Assembly (NCBI GenBank): GCA_031316235.1
Contig: JALDRA010000001.1
Span: 30,001-62,000, forward strand
DNA length: 32,000 nt
DNA from: Candidatus Scalindua sp.
GTDB lineage: Bacteria > Planctomycetota > Brocadiia > Brocadiales > Scalinduaceae
Direction: 5' to 3'
Under the pieces are notes generated by a model. That model had not been told where the DNA came from. It worked only from the letters and a program-made list of their open reading frames with translations, and did not search any database. This document shows positions 5,817-31,537 of the stretch, piece by piece (within the stretch, counting starts at the first letter, position 1; each line of letters opens with the position of its first letter). The translations under genes and the position numbers were made by a program.

Positions 5817-6240
5817 TCATTGACACATTCCGAATTTTATGATAGTGAGTTTTGATTTACCATTAAAACCTTCCACAATTCCAATAGAAAGAAGCTCTTT
5901 CACACGAAACCAATTTAAAATCTCCTCTTTATGTTTCCTTAAATTCTTTAAGATCTTTTTAACAGGTTTAATCTTTGATCGAGCAGTTAAAAATAGGGTG
6001 TTTCCTTCTACTAAATCTAGTTTTATGTATAATTTAAAGCATTGCCTTAACACTTCTTTTAAAGCCTTTTTGCTATTACGTCTGAAATTTGCTATGGTTT
6101 TATGATCAGGCTTTAGCCCTCCCATTAAACCATATAAATGAACAACTATAATGTTCTCTCAAGCTTTCTCGATCTTCTCCAAGCGTAAGAATTTCCTTAT
6201 ATCAATAGCTTCACCCTCGCTTAAAGATCATATTGAAAAT
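5817..6240 (-). pseudogene. fused IS debris: IS1182/IS5-type N-terminal fragment joined to an ISL3-type C-terminal fragment
   Basis: GGLKPDHKTIANFRRNSKKALKEVLRQCF is the IS1182/InsH N-terminal motif, and its upstream part (..RKLERTL*..) carries stops. The 3' half, ..ILNWFRVKELLSIGIVEGFNGKSKLTI, is the ISL3 C-terminal motif (..NG.VEG.N.K.K). Confidence 0.6.
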
Positions 6241-12624: not shown

Positions 12625-12655
12625 TTAGTAATTTTTAATAATGAAAATAAAATTT

Positions 12656-12774
12656 TATATGGGCCTGTTGCACAAACCAAAATCCAGTCATTCTCAATGC
12701 TATATATAGTAGTGTGTTTTAATAGTTGCTACATTATATAGATCATTATTTAGTTTGTGCAACAGGCTCATATA
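12656..12774. repeat. 119-bp unit closed by 22-bp near-perfect inverted repeats
   Basis: 12656-12677 is tatatgggcctgttgcacaaac. The reverse complement of 12753-12774 is tatatgagcctgttgcacaaac, matching 21/22. The arms are 75 bp apart, in the gap between the AsnB-like gene and a GT4 gene. Confidence 0.7.
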
Positions 12775-12809
12775 TAAGTTATATTATTGAAGTATTATTT
12801 TCAATAACA

Positions 12810-17634: not shown

Positions 17635-18033
17635 AATAGAACACAGAACAACACGGATTACGCATATTTTAAGGGTTTTTGTGTCTGATCATTGGTAAAT
17701 ATTTTTCTCTTAAATTCGGCTCTCTTCTCAAATTTTAGCAGAAGTCCTACTTGGATTTTGGCTGCTTTCAAATAATTATTCAATTGAAATTCATGAACTT
17801 CGCAAATAGTCCCAGCCACTTTTAATGGTAACACTACAACCAATTTTACTTAATTCCATTACCATCGCATTTTCATTAGTTTTTTCTAAAACCCCAATAC
17901 CAAGTTTGTTGTTTACTTCATAAAATGATTTTATTATTCTTCCTGTAATATCCTTGTCTAGAATTTAATTTTTATATCATAAATTTTTTTATCTGTGAAA
18001 TATCCGTATCCTCAGAGTTATCCGTGGTCTATT
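17635..18033 (-). mobile_element. decayed class-1 GxxExxY cassette with both bounding repeats
   Basis: The left arm at 17635-17660 is aatagaacacagaacaacacggatta. The right arm at 17988-18033 is tttatctgtgaaatatccgtatcctcagagttatccgtggtctatt. The interior is collinear with 19585-20097 apart from an internal deletion. Confidence 0.65.
17658..17964 (-). pseudogene. GxxExxY protein pseudogene (class 1)
   Basis: It aligns at nucleotide level to 19621-20079 but lacks about 30 central codons. The start codon is changed: intact cttgtgtaacat versus ccttgtctagaat, so ATG becomes ATT. Confidence 0.75.
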
Positions 18034-18145
18034 GTACTCATCTTATAATGGTTTTCGGATAAAATCCGAGAAAAAACGGAGCGAGTATAACTGCAACCAA
18101 GCTTTGTTTTTTAGAAAAAGCTAAAACCAAAGCGGTTTTAGTATA
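18033..18145 (+). repeat. MITE family 1, full length (copy A)
   Basis: tgtactcatcttataatggttttcggataaaatccgagaaaaaacggagcgagtataactgcaaccaagctttgttttttagaaaaagctaaaaccaaagcggttttagtata. It abuts the cassette arm at 18033 and ends 10 bp from the FemAB-like stop codon. Confidence 0.85.
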
Positions 18146-18155
18146 TCCTTGTATA

Positions 18156-19247
18156 TCACAAACTTACATATTTTCTGATTGCAGGACCTATACGGTTTGT
18201 TACACAGAGTGGTAATTTCTGCCATATTTGTTCTATTTTTTCCCTATTTGATGAAGTTGTTGCATTAAAGTTAAGTTTCTTGCCGTTCATAATTATATAA
18301 TTCCAAAATAGAGGAACAGGCATTGAACTCCATTGCAGTTTAAATTTATAGGTACCTTCATCAGGTGTAGATCGACCAAAATCAAATTGCACATACCCAT
18401 TATCAGCAGAGAATTTTAAAAAATTCCAGTAAAGGAGCATATTGGGTGAAAGGCGGTTGTACTCACGTAAAGTAGATGCCCATGAGACCCAAACACTCTT
18501 ACTAGTGCTTAAAATAATTCCACCACCAACCGGTTTATTACTATAATAAACTAATCCTAAACGGGCGTTCTCACCATAATGTCGTAAGATATTTCTAAAC
18601 CATTCTTTTGAGTGAACGGGTGAACCAAGCTCCCTCATGTTTCTGCAAAAAACCAGATAAAATTCAGCAAAATGTTTAATATCACCCCAAACAAAATCCA
18701 ATCCATTTTTCTCAGCCTTACGAATTTGACTGCGTAGTTTAGATTTGAAACTAACCATCAGCTTATTAGACGACGATGGTATTTCAAGTAACATGCTGAC
18801 TTTATGAGATTGAGTATTTACTTGTAAATCCTGTTCCTGAGAAAATGTGGTTAAGTTATGGCTGCGTAATTCTATTCGTTTTGCCTTTAGTTTCCTGGCC
18901 ATTGATGTCGCTTCCTTTATGAGTTTGTCTCGTGCTTCATTACAACTGCTCAATATGCCACCCAAATCACAATATGGTAAAGAAACCAACTGACCAGACA
19001 AGAGTGGTGGTTTCATAAATATTAAAGGTAATACCCCAAGTAACTTCCCGCTTTCTCCTGCCATCAGGTAGTATCCCTTGTGTTTGTAAGCATCTTCAAC
19101 AGCCATTTTCCATGCAAAAAGATGGTATGCTGAACCATTCGGATGAGACAATATATACTCATCCCACGCTTCCCTGTCTTCAATGCTAGCTAATCTTATA
19201 TTCATGCTTCTTGGTTCAACGGTTTTTTCATAGAACACAGACGACAC
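18156..19247 (-). CDS. FemAB-family protein of the PEP-CTERM/EPS-locus type
   Basis: It has the GNAT-like FemAB architecture with ..FDFGRSTPDEGTYKFKLQWSSMPVPLFWNY.. near the C-terminus. The track start at 19247 is GTG and lies inside a cassette repeat. ATG at 19205 (MNIRLASIEDREAWDEY..) is the more likely start. Confidence 0.75.
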   Translation of the reverse strand: MSSVFYEKTVEPRSMNIRLASIEDREAWDEYILSHPNGSAYHLFAWKMAVEDAYKHKGYYLMAGESGKLLGVLPLIFMKPPLLSGQLVSLPYCDLGGILSSCNEARDKLIKEATSMARKLKAKRIELRSHNLTTFSQEQDLQVNTQSHKVSMLLEIPSSSNKLMVSFKSKLRSQIRKAEKNGLDFVWGDIKHFAEFYLVFCRNMRELGSPVHSKEWFRNILRHYGENARLGLVYYSNKPVGGGIILSTSKSVWVSWASTLREYNRLSPNMLLYWNFLKFSADNGYVQFDFGRSTPDEGTYKFKLQWSSMPVPLFWNYIIMNGKKLNFNATTSSNREKIEQIWQKLPLCVTNRIGPAIRKYVSL

Positions 19248-19581
19248 GGATAACGTAGATTATCACGGATTATTTTCCGATTATTGTTAAAAACTTCTGT
19301 AACATCCTTGTGAAGCATTAAATTCTAACATCCTATCTTTATTTATCAGTGAAACATCCGTGTTATTACTGTTGTCCGTGTTCATTTGATAGAACGCAGG
19401 GGCCACGGGTTGACACAAAATTTCACGTGTTTTATTTCTGGTCATTGATAAAGATTTTTCTGTATTGTCCTTGCCTAACATTGGATTGTTTCAACCTATT
19501 TTTGTTTATCTGTGAGACACCCGCGTTATCGGTGCTATCCGTGTTCTATTGATTGAACGCAGATAACGCGGGTGGCATAGG
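19231..19581 (-). mobile_element. two gutted class-1 GxxExxY cassettes in tandem, separated by palindromic repeat junctions
   Basis: Remnant r1 keeps ATG (19316-19318) plus about 12 codons (MLHKDVTEVFNN). Remnant r2 keeps ATG (19479-19481) plus about 11 codons (MLGKDNTEKSL) fused to the last few codons and 3' UTR (19417-19446). The repeat junctions are at 19338-19416 and 19501-19581. Confidence 0.6.
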
Positions 19582-19610
19582 TTTTCACAGGTTTTGTTTT
19601 TGATCATTGG

Positions 19611-19723
19611 TATACTCATCTCATAATGGTTTTCGGATAAAATCCGAGAAAAAATGGAGCGAGTATAACTGCAACCAAGATTTAGTTTCCGGTAAAACCG
19701 AAAACCAAATCGGTTTTAGTATA
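19611..19723 (+). repeat. MITE family 1, full length (copy B), with TA target-site duplication
   Basis: The filled site is cattgg-TA-tactcatc...ggttttagta-TA-aatattttt. The paralogous empty site at 17691-17705 is cattgg-TA-aatattttt. Confidence 0.85.
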
Positions 19724-20079
19724 AATATTTTTCTCCTAAATTCGGCTTTTTTACCAAAATTTAGTAGAATGCCTACTTCTATTTGGGTTGCTTTCAAATA
19801 GTTGATCAATTGAAATTCATGATGTTCACAAATAGTCTCAGCCACTTTTAATTCTACAATAACCAAATCATCTACTATTAGGTCAGCATAATAGTCTCCA
19901 ACTTCCTCCTTGTCATAATAAACTTTAATATTTTTCTGCTTAGAAACAGTACAACCAATTTTACCTAGTTCGATTGCCATCGCATTTTCATAAACTTTTT
20001 CTAAGAACCCAAAACCTAGTTTGTTATTTACTTCATAAAAAGCTTTTATTATTTTCCCAGTAGTATTCTTGTGTAACAT
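19621..20079 (-). CDS. GxxExxY protein (PD-(D/E)XK fold), class 1, C-terminus replaced by MITE read-through
   Basis: It has GFLEKVY (GxxExxY) and D..VELK motifs. Homology to the paralogs ends at ..AEFRRKIF. The last 44 codons are translated from MITE copy B, and the ancestral stop lies at 19585-19587. Confidence 0.85.
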   Translation of the reverse strand: MLHKNTTGKIIKAFYEVNNKLGFGFLEKVYENAMAIELGKIGCTVSKQKNIKVYYDKEEVGDYYADLIVDDLVIVELKVAETICEHHEFQLINYLKATQIEVGILLNFGKKAEFRRKIFILKPIWFSVLPETKSWLQLYSLHFFSDFIRKPL

Positions 20080-20224
20080 TAAATTCTTATATCATACTTT
20101 GTTTATCTCTGAAATTTCCGTGTCATCAGTATTATCCGTGTTCTATTATCCAATCAACTATTTGAACCCATTTATTTCGGAAGGAAATCATCTAATATCG
20201 GAATGATGCACTGCACTCCATTTG

Positions 20225-21088
20225 TCAAGCAACAGTTTCAGTCATCTTATGTTGAGGGCTAATTGGCCCGAATTTGAAATCTTTAAGTAACTTACCAAAA
20301 CGTTCTTTCGTTTTTACCAAATTATGGTATGTTCTGAATCTTGATAAAAATTTTGCGCCATGAATTCTTGGTTGTTCCGGATCTATCTCCCAGGGATGTA
20401 AGTAAAATATAAATGGTTGATTGTCGCTAGTATTGATCTTGTGTAAGGCCATTCTCGTAAACCAGTAAGGAAACAAACGAAAATAGCCACCACCTGAAAC
20501 AGGAATATTTAGTCCCAGTAATCTGGATGTTGTAATTGGGTATTCAACCAAATCATGTTCGACTAATTTATATTCAAATCTTGGGGCATCAGGCATACCA
20601 TAAAGATCATGTGTTATCGGGAAAACACTAGAATCATATTCAAAACCAGCTTCAGCCAGGATTTCAAACGCCCAAAGAGACTTCCTGGTTATTGAATAGC
20701 TTGGTGCTCTGTATCCTAAGATCTTTTTCCCGGTAATATCCTCCAAAATATTTTTGGCTTTTGTAATGTCTCTTCTAAATTCATCAGGGCTTATATTGTA
20801 TATAAGCTGATGCCGATAACTATGACAGGCTACCTCATGACCATTAATATCTATCTCTTTAACTATTTCAGGGTACTTTTCTGCAACCCATCCAAGGATA
20901 AAAAAAGTCCCTTTTATTTCATCTGTTTTAGAAAGTATCTCTAACAACTTTTTAGTATTCTCAACTACCCGACTCTCATAATTCCCCCAATCTTCAAATC
21001 TTATTTTATTTGAAAAAGCAGAAACCTGAAAATAATCCTCTACATCTATAGTTAAGTAGTTTGTAACAATGCTACCCTGATTTGTCAT
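20225..21088 (-). CDS. polysaccharide deacetylase, exosortase-A/PEP-CTERM locus type (Polysacc_deac_1 + DUF3473)
   Basis: 287 aa: ..YLTIDVEDYFQVSAF.. then ..GTFFILGWVAEKYPEIVKEI..GHEVACHSYRH.. matches the characteristic N-terminus of this family. It lies next to the FemAB-like gene, as in described XrtA loci. Confidence 0.85.
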   Translation of the reverse strand: MTNQGSIVTNYLTIDVEDYFQVSAFSNKIRFEDWGNYESRVVENTKKLLEILSKTDEIKGTFFILGWVAEKYPEIVKEIDINGHEVACHSYRHQLIYNISPDEFRRDITKAKNILEDITGKKILGYRAPSYSITRKSLWAFEILAEAGFEYDSSVFPITHDLYGMPDAPRFEYKLVEHDLVEYPITTSRLLGLNIPVSGGGYFRLFPYWFTRMALHKINTSDNQPFIFYLHPWEIDPEQPRIHGAKFLSRFRTYHNLVKTKERFGKLLKDFKFGPISPQHKMTETVA

Positions 21089-22144: not shown

Positions 22145-22619
22145 TTAGCCCACTAAATTCACGAAAAAACACGAAAATACTTTCCTGCTTATAAGACCTC
22201 ATAAGATAAAACGTTCGTATTCAAGTTTTGGATGATGTCCAAAATTCACAAGAATACCCAATCTGAATTTAGTAGAATTTAAATAGTTCAAAATTTGTGA
22301 TCTATGCTCATTCGCAATTTTTGATAATGCTTTGATTTCTACAATGATTTTGTTATAACAAAAAAAATCAGGTTTATATACTTGTCTCAATATTTTATCT
22401 CGATATTTAAGTTGCAATTCTTTTTGAGCTTGAAATGGAATATTCTGTAAACTAAATTCAATTTCTAAACACTCCTGATACACCAACTCTAGAAAGCCAC
22501 ATCCCATTTCTTTATATACGTTATAACATGCACCAATAATCGAATAACTTTCATCTGCATAGATAATTTCAGATTTCATTTATTTTCTTTCGAGTTATTT
22601 CGTGCATTTCGTGGGTTAA
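22145..22619 (-). mobile_element. class-3 GxxExxY cassette bounded by 33-bp terminal inverted repeats
   Basis: 22145-22177 is ttagcccactaaattcacgaaaaaacacgaaaa. The reverse complement of 22587-22619 is ttaacccacgaaatgcacgaaataactcgaaag. They match at 27/33 positions, and each arm has three (C)ACGAAA units 9-11 bp apart. Confidence 0.75.
22199..22579 (-). CDS. GxxExxY protein (PD-(D/E)XK fold), class 3
   Basis: 126 aa with GFLELVY, PDFFCY..IVEIK and ..LVNFG motifs. ATG start. Confidence 0.9.
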   Translation of the reverse strand: MKSEIIYADESYSIIGACYNVYKEMGCGFLELVYQECLEIEFSLQNIPFQAQKELQLKYRDKILRQVYKPDFFCYNKIIVEIKALSKIANEHRSQILNYLNSTKFRLGILVNFGHHPKLEYERFIL

Positions 22620-23636: not shown

Positions 23637-23893
23637 AAGGTTGTCAATGCTTTAAACATTCCGTGTTACGCGTTGCGTGTTACGGGTCTGTCTCGTCGTC
23701 AACTGTAAGTAGCAAAATTAATAACTGGCCAGTTAACCGTTGGTCAACTGAACCGTCAAACTGGAACCGTACCAAACAATTACTCCATCGCTTAATATGT
23801 ACATAGCTCCGCTCTCTGGGTTACATCGGTTAATGCAACTTTTTAAATTTTAAGAGCCTTATGTAAACCACTAATCTGAATACAACAGTCAGG

Positions 23894-24033
23894 TATACTC
23901 ATCTTATAATGGTTTTCGGATAAAATCCGAGAAAAGACGGAGCGAGTAAAGTCCTCGGCGCCTTTTGTCCGGGGATACCATTAACCAGACTTTGGTTTTT
24001 AGAAAAATCTAAAACCAAATCGGTTTTAGTATA
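23894..24033 (+). repeat. MITE family 1, long variant (copy C)
   Basis: It has the same termini as the other copies. The internal taactgc is replaced by about 34 bp (aagtcctcggcgccttttgtccggggataccatt). Confidence 0.8.
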
Positions 24034-24144
24034 TATACCTGAGGTATAAGAGAATTAATGGAACAAATTTCATTATTATAGCAAATCCTTCGACTAAACA
24101 TTAATTGTGTATATTCTCATGCCATGAGTCATAAAGCACTACGA

Positions 24145-25080: not shown

Positions 25081-25131
25081 TATTGCTTATCTTATAATGA
25101 TTTTCGGATAAAATCCGAAAAAATTAGTATA
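25081..25131 (+). repeat. MITE family 1, short form (copy D)
   Basis: tattgcttatcttataatgattttcggataaaatccgaaaaaattagtata. It directly abuts the class-2 cassette arm at 25132. Confidence 0.75.
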
Positions 25132-25685
25132 TCACGCTAAGACGCTAAGATCGCAAAGTAAAAAAACTTTTAAAATCTTTTATATACATCTGTTTTGCAA
25201 TAAAACCTTTTTCTTCGTAGCAGGCTAACTGTAATTTATCAAGTGATTTCACGGAACATGCGTAATGAGGTTATTCTTCCAATCTATTTACTATGCGTGT
25301 GATACCATCCTTCATCAATGCCTCACCAAAGTTGAGCAAAAACCCCAACTTCATCCCAGTCAGCCTCAGATAGGTAAGCAATTGTTTTTTGTGGACTTTT
25401 GTAACAGCTTCAACGGATTTCAACTCTAAAATCACTTTGTTTTCAACAATAATATCAGCTTTAAACGCTTCCTCAAACTTTATACCGTTATATTCAATTG
25501 GTATTGTTACCTGCCTTTGAACTTTCAGTTTACGTCTACCAAGTTCACGCACAAGAATAACTTCATAGACTGTTTCAAGCAACCCTGGACCTAGTTCTTT
25601 ATGTAAAACAATAGACTCATCAACCACAACCTTGCCTATTTCATTTTCTGTCATTCTTCTTTGCGATCCCTGCGGCTTTGCGAGA
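25132..25685 (-). mobile_element. class-2 GxxExxY cassette bounded by 27-bp inverted repeats
   Basis: The reverse complement of 25132-25158 is ctttgcgatcttagcgtcttagcgtga. 25659-25685 is ctttgcgatccctgcggctttgcgaga. They match at 21/27. Confidence 0.7.
25271..25654 (-). CDS. GxxExxY protein (PD-(D/E)XK fold), class 2
   Basis: 127 aa with GLLETVY, ADIIVENKVILELK and ..LLNFG motifs. ATG start. Confidence 0.9.
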   Translation of the reverse strand: MTENEIGKVVVDESIVLHKELGPGLLETVYEVILVRELGRRKLKVQRQVTIPIEYNGIKFEEAFKADIIVENKVILELKSVEAVTKVHKKQLLTYLRLTGMKLGFLLNFGEALMKDGITRIVNRLEE

Positions 25686-25700
25686 TTCTATTTTTTGATA

Positions 25701-25782
25701 TATACTCACCAGATAATGGTTTTCGAACACATTACGGAAAAAAAACTGAGCGAGTATACCAGCAACCAGGCTTTCGTTATTA
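25701..25782 (+). repeat. MITE family 1, degenerate and 3'-truncated (copy F)
   Basis: tatactcaccagataatggttttcgaacacattacggaaaaaaaactgagcgagtataccagcaaccaggctttcg.. Similarity fades before the stop codon of the next gene at 25814. Confidence 0.6.
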
Positions 25783-27431: not shown

Positions 27432-27481
27432 TATACTCATCTCATAATGATTTTCGGATAAAATCCGAGAAAATTAGTATA
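27432..27481 (+). repeat. MITE family 1, short form (copy E)
   Basis: tatactcatctcataatgattttcggataaaatccgagaaaattagtata. It abuts the class-2 arm at 27482, as copy D does. Confidence 0.8.
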
Positions 27482-27785
27482 TCACGCTAAGACGCTAAGA
27501 ACGCGAAGCATAAAGATTTTTATATAGTGATTGAACGAAAACTACCCATCTACTGTGTTGCTGTAATAATTTCTTAATCCTCAAGTACATTAGTACGTTC
27601 CGGTTGCGAAATTACTACACGCCTTGTATCTGGGCCGTTTTCGTTCAACCACAGGGTTTCCGTTCAAGCACTATATACATCTTTTTTTTTGCATACCTTT
27701 CTGTTTTGCAATAGAATCATCAATTACAACCTTGCCTATTTTATTTTCTGTCATTCTTATTTGCGATCCCTGCGTCTTTGCGTGA
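27482..27785 (-). pseudogene. gutted class-2 GxxExxY cassette (both arms kept, gene reduced to about 14 codons)
   Basis: The arms are 27482-27508 (tcacgctaagacgctaagaacgcgaag) and 27759-27785 (atttgcgatccctgcgtctttgcgtga). The start codon at 27752-27754 is followed by MTENKIGKVVIDDS (intact copy: MTENEIGKVVVDES), then joined to the 3'-flank sequence at a shared caata. Confidence 0.7.
27527..27671 (+). repeat. MITE family 2 (copy 2) with TA-rich target duplication
   Basis: It starts gtgattgaacgaaaactaccca. The reverse complement of the 3' end is gtgcttgaacggaaaccctgtggttgaacgaaaacggccca, so the TIR is about 16/18 and is duplicated at the 3' end. It is flanked by tatata on both sides, whereas the uninterrupted paralogous site at 25181-25186 has a single tatata. 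Confidence 0.65.
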
Positions 27786-27800
27786 AACTATTTTTTGATG

Positions 27801-27913
27801 TATACTCATCTCATAATGATTTTTGGATAAGATCCGAGAAAAAACGGAGTGAGTGTAACTGCAACCAGGCTTTGGATTTTAGATAAATCTAAAACCAAAT
27901 CGATTTTAGTATA
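27801..27913 (+). repeat. MITE family 1, full length (copy G)
   Basis: tatactcatctcataatgatttttggataagatccgagaaaaaacggagtgagtgtaactgcaaccaggctttggattttagataaatctaaaaccaaatcgattttagtata. Confidence 0.85.
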
Positions 27914-27935
27914 TGCCAGACCAGAGAGCCATAGT

Positions 27936-28487
27936 TTAGAATATATTCTTTAATCTCTTGTTAAAGCCTTTAAGGCCCGGTGTTTCAATGATATCATTAT
28001 CTCTGTATATCTTAAAAAGTTTATAAGCAGTATTGTCCAATAGATATATCTCTATAGACTCATCCTCCGGAATTACGATCCAGTATTCCTTTACACCAAA
28101 TTGTGCATAAAGTTTCTTCTTTTGAACCATGTCTCTATAGGCACTGCTCTTGGAGATTATCTCTATTGTTATACAAGGGGCTCCCTGGATATTCTTTTCT
28201 CCTATGATATTCAGCCTCTCCTTTGAAATAAACATAATATCAGGTTGAACCACATTTCCCTCATCAAGGTATACATCGCACGGCGTAAAAAATATCTCCC
28301 CAAGGTTCTTTTCGTTTACAAACTTCTCTAACAAAAACTCCAGCTTTCTTAGAATCCTTTGATGTCCTGTAGTTGGAGATGGAGTCATAAGTAGTTCCCC
28401 CTCTATAAGTTCATACCTCTTATCATCAGACATCATAACATAATCTTCATACGTATATTTTTTCTTCTTTTCAATAACTTTTGTCAT
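27936..28487 (-). CDS. Uma2-family (DUF820) PD-(D/E)XK endonuclease
   Basis: 183 aa: ..YTYEDY..DDKRYELIEGEL.MTPSPTTGHQ.. then ..VVQPDIMFISKE.. and ..APCITIEIISKSS..D...K...YA..GV.EYWIV. This is the typical Uma2 pattern. Confidence 0.85.
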   Translation of the reverse strand: MTKVIEKKKKYTYEDYVMMSDDKRYELIEGELLMTPSPTTGHQRILRKLEFLLEKFVNEKNLGEIFFTPCDVYLDEGNVVQPDIMFISKERLNIIGEKNIQGAPCITIEIISKSSAYRDMVQKKKLYAQFGVKEYWIVIPEDESIEIYLLDNTAYKLFKIYRDNDIIETPGLKGFNKRLKNIF

Positions 28488-28761: not shown

Positions 28762-30180
28762 TTATTTAACAATTCGAAGACTTCTCTTAAATTTTTTATT
28801 TTTAATTCTTTCCTGGTCGTCCCTTTTGTATTTTTCGATAACTTTATCGTAAGTACCGTTATATTTCGCGCATCTGATCTTGAGTATGTTATTAGCGTTT
28901 TGGATATACCACCAAGCTCCTGATCGTTTAAGCCTTGTATGGCTAATGAATTTATTGGCGCTTTCAATAGCACCGCTGCCAATGTGATATCCTCCACGCT
29001 TGGCGGAACTGTAATCCATCTTTTCACAATGATTTGTGAGATAGGTATAAAACTTGTCAATTTTATCTTGAATATCTTGAGTTCGGGCTTTCATCTTTCC
29101 AAGACCGCCAAGCACCTCTTCATGGTAACCATAATATATTCTTGTCAGAGTCGCCTCACACCACTGTAGAGACTCTCTTGTCTCTTTTCCGTAATGGGCA
29201 TTGGCTACACCATGGACATACTCCGAGCAATGGTAATAGTCGAGAATCTCTTTTGCCGAGGGAAATATTTCTTTACATCGGTTCCAGATCCAGGGAGCAC
29301 CGTCTCCTATAATTCCCAGGCGTATCTTCTCGTGGGGAATAAGCCCGGCTTCTTTGATCTTAACCAAGTATTCTGCTAATTCGTGATCTGCACAAACCTG
29401 GTGCCAGCTAATTAAATGAATAATAGTTTGACCATCGATGAGATACAGTCTAAAACCTTTAATCTCTTTGTATTCTCCCTTGCCTCTTTTCCCTTTACGG
29501 GGGTGAGGACTTGGCTCGGGACGCATCGGCCCGTGGGCTCCATCCAGGGCAAGCATCATAATGGGACGACGAAACTTATCCACTGAGAGGTTTTCTATCT
29601 GCTTATCAATCTCTTCCCTGGGCGGGCAGACATCCAAAATTCCCACTTCTTGACCAATGGCATTCGTGGTCTCATGCATATGATGTTCACTCAGCTTTAC
29701 TCCGGTTATTCTCTCGTAGGTTTCGCTGGCCGTCTCATAGGCCGTTTCGCTTGACAACCAGGCTTCCACATCTTGCACATCATATTGCTTCGATGATTCA
29801 GACAATCCAAGGGCTTCGTCTAAAGGATAGTATCCTAAACGACACGCTCTGCAATAAAAATAAGGCCTGGTTAATTCAAATTGTCCGGCAAGGGTTTGGA
29901 TAGTCTTGGATTGTTTTCCTTGTCTTTGCATACCCTTGCCGCATTCGGGGCAATCGCAGCTTTGCTGATTCAATAAATGTCCAAATTTCCTCTCTATGAA
30001 CCCAAGAATCAGTTGTCCTAATATCTCCGCTCTCTCTTCGAAAACAGCTTTTGAGATTTCTCCTAAATCTTCCATTGAGTACTCTTCCTCAATCTTATCC
30101 AATCGGGTGTCTAAAAAACCATAAAATAAAGCTCTCCAGTTATCGGATGACTCTATCTTTCTTTTCACCACACAAGTCAA
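28762..30180 (-). mobile_element. ISKra4-like transposase gene (apparently intact); element ends not defined
   Basis: 472 aa with the zinc-ribbon pair CDCPECG...YFYCRACRLGYYPLDEALGL followed by a DDE-type body (..LALDGAH.., ..IIGDGAPWIW.., ..DYYHCSEY..). This architecture is characteristic of ISKra4-family transposases. The track start is TTG, and the true start may be internal (MEDLGEI..). Confidence 0.75.
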
Positions 30181-30203: not shown

Positions 30204-30869
30204 CTATCGCTCCCTGAATACATCTATGGCGAATAGTAACGCCTGACGTTCTAATACAGGCATGGATTTAAGTTTCGCTGTCCACCTTTTGGTCTTCCTC
30301 TTTATCCGTTCCCGCTCACGAAAGTTATTGCCAAGATAACGATAGTCGTGCAGTCCTACCGGAACACTATAGTTCATCCATAACCACTCCGTTGCTACGC
30401 CATGATGACAGACGGCCTGAAAAGAATGTGTCTGCCAGCTACGCAATGATTCTTTGTATAAGGTTGACTCGTAACCGGATATCATCACCATGCAGGGAAG
30501 AGTTTTCAAAACTTCCAAAAGTTCGATGTGCTGCGCACGGCTATAGTCATATTTATATAGCCGTCCATACTTTTTCCTTGTCTCGCGAAGATATGGTGGG
30601 TCACAATATACCAGTTCTTTTCCTGTGAAATGATAATTATTCAGATAATTAATTGCGTCATCATGGACCAGTTCAAAACCTATTGGATGCATATTTGTCC
30701 ACATCTCAACAACTTCCGAGTCAATTTCTATCCCAAAATTACTCCTGGCAGGTCGTTTGTTCCGTATAACAGCGCCACCACCCAAATGAGTCTCTATGTA
30801 GACATCATGGGGTGGCATAAGATTGATTAACTTTTGGAATACACCTCCTTTGCCGCCTGGATAATTCAT
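30204..30869 (-). CDS. DNA N6-adenine methyltransferase, D12 (Dam-like) class, short form
   Basis: 221 aa with N-terminal YPGGKG (AdoMet-binding motif of D12 enzymes) and the catalytic DPPY (..VYCDPPYLRE..). No adjacent restriction-enzyme candidate is present. Confidence 0.7.
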   Translation of the reverse strand: MNYPGGKGGVFQKLINLMPPHDVYIETHLGGGAVIRNKRPARSNFGIEIDSEVVEMWTNMHPIGFELVHDDAINYLNNYHFTGKELVYCDPPYLRETRKKYGRLYKYDYSRAQHIELLEVLKTLPCMVMISGYESTLYKESLRSWQTHSFQAVCHHGVATEWLWMNYSVPVGLHDYRYLGNNFRERERIKRKTKRWTAKLKSMPVLERQALLFAIDVFRER

Positions 30870-31011
30870 GGAAGAATTATCGTTGAAAACAACGAGGAAG
30901 TCAAGATCTTTTATTATATTTTACAAAAAATCGGGAATGCTCCCATAACACTCCTATCTGTCCAATCCAGAAAACAAATGTCCATTTGATTATATCGGAC
31001 TTACTCTTTTC

Positions 31012-31124
31012 TATACTCATCTCATAATGGTTTTCGGATAAAACCCGAGACAAAATTGAGCGAGTATAACTGCAACCAAGATTTTGTTTCCGGTAAAGCC
31101 GAAAACCAAATCGGTTTTAGTATA
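31012..31124 (+). repeat. MITE family 1, full length (copy H)
   Basis: tatactcatctcataatggttttcggataaaacccgagacaaaattgagcgagtataactgcaaccaagattttgtttccggtaaagccgaaaaccaaatcggttttagtata. Confidence 0.85.
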
Positions 31125-31537
31125 TCTCAATTCTATGTTTTCCACACTCCTCAGTGATTTCCTGGTTCAACCTACCGGTTTCTTCGGTAAGTCGTCTTTC
31201 AAACCTTTCTTCGGCAAACACTATAATCTCCTCGTGATTACGGGAACTTCTTCTTGTTCAATTGAAAAATAATCGCTACAAGGTATCACACGTTACAATA
31301 ATATAGCCTGCTCCCTTTAATAATTCAATTTGCTTTTGCATTAAAGCTATTCCTTACCTGGCAGAGCCAGAACCAAAAAGGAATAAATTTTATATGTGTT
31401 CTTGTTCGGCCAGGTTGTTAAATGAAAACCTGACCACCTGTGCCGAACATTGCAGTATTCAAAAAGATCAGAAAATCAAGATATTGCAATTTAGAGACTA
31501 AGTGGTATCTGAAGCGGAAAGCTAAAATATCTCAAGA

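Follow-up and report, generated by a model that had tools for sequence, protein, structure and literature searches.

In REPIN-RAYT systems a small gene lies between inverted short repeats, gene-less doublets are far commoner than gene-bearing copies, target-site duplications are not obvious, and the copies are intergenic and often clustered. MITEs (transposable elements of the miniature inverted-repeat kind) and their parent terminal-inverted-repeat (TIR) transposons (for example, Correia/NEMIS elements) similarly combine terminal inverted repeats with dispersed copies and internally deleted non-autonomous derivatives. These characteristics recur in a stretch of DNA from Candidatus Scalindua sp. 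(32,000 nucleotides; positions 30,001 to 62,000 of contig JALDRA010000001.1, assembly GCA_031316235.1), which is referred to in its entirety as the window and is numbered from its first letter. There, a gene of the GxxExxY family and several degenerate copies of it stand in units bounded by inverted arms, here termed GxxExxY cassettes. The RAYT gene encodes a single-copy Y1/HUH transposase and is vertically kept, whereas the GxxExxY gene encodes a predicted PD-(D/E)XK nuclease, is multi-copy and is horizontally spread across phyla. The repetitive extragenic palindrome (REP) tag of REPINs reads GTAG/CGTC, while the cassette terminus reads ATAG and its arms consist of approximately 45 nt of 9-nt periodic cores. 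Identity with REPIN-RAYT was rejected, as neither an HUH enzyme nor a GTAG tag is present. In contrast to MITEs and TIR transposons, the cassette contains no DDE, serine or tyrosine transposase, its only enclosed open reading frame (ORF) being a 124-aa PD-(D/E)XK domain; no duplication of at least 3 bp accompanies the cassettes, and their miniature forms are almost pure hairpins. A classical MITE pair was rejected for want of a recognised transposase and of any visible duplication of 3 bp or more. Inverted pairs of short tandem repeats, such as the cyanobacterial short tandemly repeated repetitive (STRR) heptamers, share with the cassette arms the intergenic arrays of 7-9-nt units and the convergent pairs able to form stem-loops, but they are described as repeats alone. 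GGGAATC heptamer repeats in inverted pairs are reported from Xanthomonas, where no link to an enclosed nuclease gene was made (PMC4692102).

It is likely, in our assessment, that the region is a local pile-up of one small selfish DNA cassette family inside an XrtA/PEP-CTERM operon, with MITE- or REPIN-like non-autonomous derivatives, and for its array the most apt description is a cluster, in decay, of selfish cassettes of a widespread kind that carry a nuclease gene and are bounded by inverted repeats. The cassette is made up of a left arm, a short leader, a GxxExxY gene of approximately 124 codons and an inverse right arm. Four copies of the type designated class 1 occur in the window: one is gene-bearing but hit by a MITE-like repeat (unit A), one is a pseudogene in a neighbouring spacer (U4), and two are internally deleted minis (r1 and r2) in which the leader with its start codon, the 3' end of the gene and both arms survive. 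Units A, r2 and r1 stand head to tail on the minus strand at 19230-20147, each running from a left arm of approximately 45 nt and a 5' leader with its start codon to a 3' end and then a right arm in inverted orientation. Together they lie in the 1019-nt spacer between two minus-strand genes, one for an XrtA-system polysaccharide deacetylase (20225-21088) and one for a FemAB-family XrtA-associated protein (18156-19205). The initial annotation had proposed a tandem array of three cassettes in varying decay, joined by palindromes, and both self-comparison of the array and alignment of its units bear this out. The three-unit periodicity was recovered: a 50-nt arm is present in three in-register copies (19338-19387, 19501-19550 and 20098-20147; 76-80% identical), a 37-nt leader and start-codon segment likewise (19299-19335, 19462-19498 and 20060-20096; 65-78% identical), and a 116-nt direct repeat, 72% identical, recurs at a spacing of 163 nt. 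A 17-mer arm pattern has five matches in the window against 0.19 expected, a number reached by 0 of 100 shuffles. The remnant reading frames start as had been claimed (MLGKDNTEKSL in r2 and MLHKDVTEVFNN in r1, according to the ORF list), and both start regions can be aligned with the full gene's 5' end. The count of three cassettes is correct for 19230-20147, but a fourth degenerate unit lies beyond the FemAB gene at 17636-18032.

Read along the minus strand, on which all cassette features of the window lie, a class-1 unit opens with an A followed by ATAGAACACGGAT, continues with two or three more CGGAT-type cores approximately 9 nt apart, TTTCAC, the leader and the ORF, and closes with the inverse arm, which ends in GTGTTCTAT followed by a T. 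The left arm has a length of about 45 nt and comprises the terminus (A, then ATAGAAC), three or four CGGAT cores spaced by about 9 nt, and TTTCAC; the right arm is its inverse. In unit A the left arm (20104-20147; A followed by ATAGAACACGGATAATACTGATGACACGGAAATTTCAGAG) shows the ATAGAAC terminus and the CGGAT-type cores at this spacing, and its consensus also flanks close homologues of the gene in other organisms. Codons 1-119 of the gene occupy 19723-20079 and match TIGR04256 and PF13366. The gene had been called intact at 152 aa, a description that does not hold: codon 120 is split by a 109-nt MITE-like repeat (19613-19721) with flanking TA dinucleotides at 19722-19723 and 19611-19612, the insertion point being inferred from U4 and the homologue consensus. 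The repeat lengthens the annotated ORF to 19621 with a 33-aa repeat-derived tail and displaces the original 3' end of the gene, whose last eight codons (TNDQKQNL) and stop are found at 19585-19610, in keeping with the family consensus C-terminus KIFTNDRK. The right arm of unit A, ending in GCGTTCAAT, follows at 19552-19590. Remnant r2 consists of a left arm (19506-19549; ATAGAACACGGATAGCACCGATAACGCGGGTG), a body (19429-19505) with the leader, an ATG at 19479-19481, approximately nine codons and the fused gene 3' end, as delimited by the unit alignment and the ORF list, and a right arm ending in CCTGCGTTCTAT (19389-19428). Remnant r1 repeats this arrangement with a left arm (19341-19386; AATGAACACGGACAACAGTAATAACACGGATGTTTCAC), a body (19272-19340) with the leader, an ATG at 19316-19318, approximately nine codons and the fused 3' end in the unit alignment, and a right arm ending in CCGTGTCGTCTGTGTTCTAT (19230-19271), which is overlapped by a probably spurious GTG start of the FemAB gene at 19247. 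This last arm had been reported as a lone arm at 19231-19270; its identity as an arm stands, with 19230-19255 being 76-81% complementary to the other arms, but it belongs to r1 as its right arm.

The palindromic junctions are present as described, but they are composite, each being formed where a unit's right arm meets, at a distance of 2-3 nt, the left arm of its successor. This follows because each unit owns both a left and a right arm, the array beginning with a lone left arm and ending with a lone right arm. The perfect 13-bp stem with its 31-nt loop was found in the self-comparison, with one strand (19562-19574) in the right arm of unit A and the other (19518-19530) in the left arm of r2. 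The junction at 19495-19600 folds at -32.8 kcal/mol (z = -5.4) and the duplex of the two arms reaches -35.6 kcal/mol (z = -7.1), while the second junction, at 19332-19437, is an unexceptional hairpin (-20.9 kcal/mol, z = -1.3). The left and right arms of r1 pair at -33.4 kcal/mol (z = -6.2). The 13-bp stem was considered as a special site and rejected, the left arm of r2 pairing better with the right arm of r1 (-43.9 kcal/mol).

Comparison of the deletions in these units gives no support to the earlier proposal that gene bodies were lost precisely, by recombination or excision at defined sites. The endpoints of the r1 and r2 deletions fall inside the coding sequence, the fourth unit carries a different deletion of 89 nt, and gene-less hairpins elsewhere have other inner boundaries. 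Judged from the sequences, the pattern is one of arms being retained rather than of a fixed excision site. In r1 and r2 the deletion fuses a 5' segment ending in ACAG to a 3' segment beginning with GAAAAATNTTTANCAATGA. The join falls at an imperfect direct repeat, short and A-rich (GRAARAAT), that occurs at both ends of the full gene, and this suggests that slippage or microhomology, not a dedicated site of recombination, was at work. The two remnants share their endpoints within approximately 3 nt, yet they are only 68-71% identical; the deletion either is old and was passed on by copying of a derivative, or arose twice by recurrent slippage. As they keep ORF relics, r1 and r2 show that a gene-bearing cassette can give rise to gene-less forms when an internal deletion leaves the arms untouched, and they would resemble textbook deletion intermediates of the MITE kind. 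The fourth unit, U4, lies in the spacer downstream of FemAB and retains a left arm, a dead start (ATG to ATT at 17962-17964), a GxxExxY pseudogene with the 89-nt internal frameshifting deletion, and a right arm; its C-terminal fragment matches TIGR04256. The four class-1 units are 68-80% identical in their shared modules. Units A and U4 are 80-85% identical and occupy different spacers on either side of an unduplicated FemAB gene; therefore, at least one copying event here was not a tandem duplication.

The protein of unit A scores 130 bits against TIGR04256 (cut-off 35, E = 4e-38) and 133 bits against PF13366 (PDDEXK_3; cut-off 22, E = 8e-39), and two other copies in the window score 135-140 bits. 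Residues G24, E27 and Y30 of the GxxExxY motif and the catalytic D66, E76 and K78 are invariant in 43 aligned sequences and are intact in unit A. These matches identify the gene as a member of the GxxExxY family and its product as a predicted minimal PD-(D/E)XK nuclease. The AlphaFold (AF2) model displays an alpha-alpha-beta-beta-beta-alpha-beta-beta core with a predicted local distance difference test score (pLDDT) of approximately 85-98; the 33-aa tail derived from the repeat has a pLDDT below 50 and is predicted to be disordered. A fold search against the PDB returned weak, generic minimal PD-(D/E)XK neighbours (Cas4 SSO0001, archaeal Hjc and lambda-exonuclease-like proteins) at template modelling (TM) scores of approximately 0.4-0.47, and a sequence search of the PDB found no match at E <= 10. 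In a survey of the superfamily, the function of PF13366/TIGR04256 is given as unknown (PMC3424549).

Two further cassette classes with the same layout and different arms occur in the window. In class 2 (22147-22617), inverted arms of the CCCACGAAA type (z = -4.4) enclose an intact GxxExxY gene of 126 aa (22199-22579), and class 3 (25131-25687) encloses an intact 127-aa gene (25271-25654) between ATCGCAAAG-type inverted arms (z = -5.4). Their proteins are 33-34% identical to that of class 1. This brings the GxxExxY-derived units in the window to six, all of them bracketed by complementary arms with z values of -3.6 to -6.2 against shuffles. The repeat inserted in gene A is a separate MITE-like repeat of approximately 109 nt (TACTAAAACCGATTTGGTTTT to CTCGGATTTTATCCGAAAACCATTATAAGATGAGTA) with TA/TA flanks and two internal hairpins. 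It is present in five full copies (18035-18145, 19613-19721, 23887-24034, 27794-27914 and 31005-31125) and in partial copies at 1964-1994, 25700-25782, 25086-25130 and 27436-27480. Copies lie at or inside the edges of GxxExxY cassettes, and one of them disrupts gene A. A perfect 14-nt inverted repeat was also observed between the conserved INYLK codons of gene A (19793-19806) and a position just upstream of the left arm of A (20153-20166); it may be what is left of a GxxExxY fragment in inverted orientation.

The same cassette was found in other organisms. PF13366/TIGR04256 is a family of very large size, a single protein query returning thousands of close relatives, of which the best 120 are 71-84% identical; the records of some name KSB1, Bacteroidota, Calditrichota, Ignavibacteriota, Margulisiibacteriota and Zhuqueibacterota as phyla. 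The genomic context of six relatives (75-84% identical) was analysed, and class-1 arms of the ATAGAACACGGAT type flank the gene in every one, as in locus L031, where the ORF is preceded by ATAGAACACGGATAAAACGGATAACACTGATTTTCACGGATTTT and followed by AAAATCCGTGTAAATCAGTGTTATCAGTATCATCTGTGTTCTAT. The contexts are mutually unrelated: the cassette lies between two ABC ATPase genes, behind an outer-membrane efflux (OEP) gene, among TPR and unknown genes, between M20 peptidase and ornithine carbamoyltransferase genes (a Stygiobacter sp. record), between cas4 and cas1, and between an unannotated 307-aa gene and a sensor kinase gene. The gene points in the same direction as both neighbours in each of the six contexts, with spacers of only tens of nucleotides. 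Cassettes thus occupy short spacers between co-oriented operon genes. Solitary cassettes elsewhere consist of left arm, gene and right arm, without a palindromic junction. Class-2 arms accompany the class-2 protein's homologues (69-71% identical) found in an Ignavibacteriota metagenome-assembled genome (MAG) and in a hydrogenase operon. As class-1 and class-2 homologues each keep their own arms, protein subfamily and arm sequence are inherited together; by this sequence comparison, the architecture and the co-inheritance of gene and arms extend across unrelated lineages and two protein subfamilies. Within the spacer between cas4 and cas1, a search for empty sites (Cas1 relatives 86-89% identical, three contigs each for P0122 and P0129) gave no clean empty site, the spacers of the relatives (L177 445-1500; L174 385-1500) holding other inserts. 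One such insert is an unannotated 216-aa gene with the hairpins GCACAAGTCGCTGACTTGTGC and GGTCAAGTCGGCGACTTGACC present as direct copies on either side of it, and the other is a nucleotidyltransferase gene with a 92-aa gene. A further arm-gene-arm layout like that of the GxxExxY cassettes was observed in L031 (1510-2007), where a 23S_rRNA_IVP (four-helix-bundle) gene, a member of an unrelated small-ORF family, lies between RND adaptor and ABC genes and has inverted arms of TCAGC-type 8-9-mers on its two sides.

Arms without a gene were surveyed with a degenerate 22-mer of the class-1 arm over metagenome contigs, and the figures that follow refer to the matches listed. The 22-mer occurs in at least 120 contigs, the names of which point to many projects and samples, and a GxxExxY ORF is present in only 5 of 121 loci. 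Adjacent left-to-right pairs lie 60-150 nt apart in 67 of 81 cases, several contigs are multi-copy, and deduplication of pairs 60-160 nt apart leaves 81 distinct hairpins. Tandem hairpin arrays with a period of 107-114 nt are found in L035 and L155. Gene-less hairpins therefore far outnumber gene-bearing units among these matches and form tandem arrays as well. In L052 the gene is followed by a 152-nt mini with an MLHK start relic, a close parallel to unit A followed by r2. A gene-less class-1 hairpin also lies between two large ORFs (phage structural genes) of an IMG/VR viral contig (L173 3550-3660), a possible route of horizontal spread. At the variable positions of the arm, a hairpin's two arms agree with each other more frequently than they do in 500 shuffles. 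A 2-bp TA/AT duplication at the hairpins is inseparable from the palindrome itself, which runs out to the bounding A and T.

The co-inheritance of gene and arms, the dominance of gene-less hairpins, the presence of both dispersed and tandem copies, the confinement to spacers and the patchy distribution fit a DNA-level selfish element. Under the pile-up reading, the cassette would spread as DNA: the nuclease would recognise the repeated motifs of its own arms, as duplex, hairpin or cruciform, and make breaks that initiate copying, and host repair or replication would complete it. The hairpins and the r1 and r2 minis would be non-autonomous derivatives formed by internal deletion, related to the cassette as MITEs are to transposons or REPINs to RAYTs, and arrays may grow by insertion beside a resident copy or by unequal recombination between arms. 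We propose more tentatively, and with less than even confidence, that GxxExxY cassettes could form an unrecognised class of prokaryotic mobile element whose sole protein is a nuclease of approximately 124 aa of the PD-(D/E)XK type acting on its own 9-nt-periodic inverted arms, with the ATAGAAC...GTTCTAT hairpins as its non-autonomous offspring and 23S-rRNA-IVS-protein cassettes as a parallel family. No description of the cassette architecture, arms or hairpins was found in the open-access literature searched (GxxExxY, PF13366, IVS-protein).

Several results weigh against the selfish-cassette reading. We know of no transposition chemistry for a lone 124-aa PD-(D/E)XK domain, and target-site duplications of 3-8 bp were absent from the 81 hairpins among the matches listed. 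No exact pair of empty and occupied sites was recovered at the cas4-cas1 junction of relatives. In the class-1 pairing matrix a left arm does not pair best with its own right arm; rather, the right arm of r1, which is closest to the consensus, is the best partner of every left arm. The remnants r1 and r2 are not each other's closest relatives. The covariation between hairpin arms may be driven partly by host G+C content and relatedness. Finally, the geometry is uneven: in L033-L035 the gene is flanked by a whole hairpin on either side, and the order in L027 is left arm, complete left-right hairpin, gene, right arm. The elements clearly rearrange locally.

Free-standing homing genes (phage seg and mob genes; the PD-(D/E)XK enzyme I-Ssp6803I) are comparable to the cassette as small nuclease genes that have no evident promoter of their own, lie between conserved genes and are patchy among relatives, but they lack conserved terminal inverted repeats and hairpin derivatives. 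An explanation along these lines would make the hairpins an independent repeat family, near the centre of which the GxxExxY enzyme cuts so that its gene is copied in by repair with the arms as homology; left arm-gene-right arm would be the occupied site and left arm-right arm the empty one. It accommodates the excess of gene-less hairpins over gene-bearing units among the matches listed, the position of the gene, which is mostly exactly between the inner arm ends, and the private arm class of each protein subfamily, and homodimers of PD-(D/E)XK enzymes typically read symmetric sites. We consider homing unlikely, however, because the r1, r2 and L052 minis keep ORF relics, so that some gene-less forms derive from gene-bearing ones, because genes are also found outside hairpins in L033-L035, and because the spread of the hairpins themselves is left unexplained.

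Intervening sequences (IVSs) of 23S rRNA with terminal inverted repeats and ORFs of the S23p/23S_rRNA_IVP kind are established, and they resemble the cassette in having an ORF of approximately 120 codons between inverted repeats, co-directional within the host transcript. A comparable RNA-level element would pair its arms in the polycistronic transcript, RNase III would cut, the ORF would be excised or expressed, and the junction hairpins would serve as processing or stabilising sites. In 8 of 9 independent contexts the cassette runs in the direction of its neighbours, within short operon spacers; this, the strong predicted stems and the 23S_rRNA_IVP-family gene of L031, with the same arm-gene-arm layout and different short repeats, favour such an element. 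Nevertheless, the cassette belongs to another ORF family and lacks an RNA-stem substitution signature, and the position of its units, between protein-coding genes, shows that it is no rRNA intervening sequence (Rfam finds no rRNA in the window). Among arm mismatches, sense-strand G.U pairs (21) are not in excess over A.C pairs (23) and most are transversions (63), in what is a small sample; the absence of a sense-strand G.U bias together with the transversion excess argues against constraint on an RNA stem and for conserved DNA motifs. The pentamer cores are also conserved as sequence in both arms, beyond what pairing requires, and a class-2 copy (L180) lies between oppositely oriented genes. 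Rfam at gathering thresholds gave no family in the window, and ten hairpin-bearing loci gave only sub-threshold look-alikes of miRNA hairpins. An RNA-level role would not explain spread to new loci and phyla, and we judge it quite improbable as the explanation of the cassettes; an RNA-processing role may also accompany the DNA-level one.

A purely local history, in which one ancestral insertion was tandemly duplicated and then decayed to minis without ongoing mobility, is in our view highly improbable. The tandem hairpin arrays of L035 and L155, with their near-identical spacers, do look like simple local duplication, as does the duplicated arm with the same flanks in L027. However, the units of the window are only 68-80% identical with no nearest-neighbour pattern, U4 occupies another spacer while FemAB is unduplicated, and arms of the same sequence are scattered across many contigs and phyla.

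An integron-like array, in which a recombinase captures and excises gene plus palindrome at the palindrome, deserves almost no credence: co-oriented, promoter-less small genes do stand head to tail with imperfect palindromes between them, one with the perfect 13-bp stem, and the initial annotation rightly called the likeness superficial, but the window has no IntI, attI or attC core motifs and no integrase or tyrosine recombinase match among its 22 non-overlapping ORFs of at least 90 aa, the termini read ATAGAAC/GTTCTAT where attC cores would read RYYYAAC/GTTRRRY, the palindromes are half-sites of different units in an array with a lone left arm first and a lone right arm last, the second junction is not a significant hairpin, and solitary cassettes elsewhere bear one arm per side. 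An integron cassette array was rejected on the missing integrase and attC cores in the window and on the arms at both sides of each gene.

The cassettes are hosted by a minus-strand XrtA/PEP-CTERM exopolysaccharide locus of Candidatus Scalindua, as identified from the ORF list and profile searches; its other genes encode glycosyltransferases, asparagine synthases and an O-antigen-ligase-like protein. The closest FemAB orthologues belong to Candidatus Scalindua and Scalinduaceae MAGs (64-70% identity). The orthologous spacer between the deacetylase and FemAB genes measures 65 nt in the related Scalinduaceae genome L003, and 188-214 nt in L001 and L002, where it holds short-repeat relics of other kinds. 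These Scalindua-like spacers (L001 5787-6000; L002 5813-6000) contain runs of TGAACC-type short repeats, and that of L002 also carries a CCCACGAAA-type arm relic; therefore, the spacer has been struck by other classes too. The GTG start of FemAB at 19247 adds 14 residues relative to the ATG at 19205 and is probably an over-extension of the annotation, because the orthologues begin at the MNIR methionine, which corresponds to that ATG. Further mobile or selfish-looking genes were noted at 27936-28487, 28762-30180, 30204-30869, 2153-2632 and 5817-6125; among them are a Uma2-family PD-(D/E)XK gene, a UPF0236 protein gene, a Dam-like methyltransferase fragment, and IS3/IS481- and ISL3-like transposase fragments. 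Long imperfect palindromes were also observed in spacers of the XrtA locus at 12650-12780 and 27527-27652, with 32-nt arms that are 88% and 27-nt arms that are 81% complementary, respectively, and the arms approximately 70 nt apart. A promoter and terminator scan showed no enrichment.

For annotation, the locus illustrates that arms and MITEs create spurious starts and ORF extensions, as in the FemAB GTG and the 152-aa ORF. Genes of the IVP family have been reported in cas loci (PMC3936711). The selfish-cassette model may explain why GxxExxY genes occur in cas, polysaccharide and transporter operons, where they could be mistaken for functional partners of their neighbours. Genes that travel with subfamily-specific inverted arms, inside operons, and leave hairpin relics common in metagenomes constitute a testable model, in which the candidate substrate of the nuclease is its own arms and which would suggest where long intergenic hairpins of a widespread class come from.

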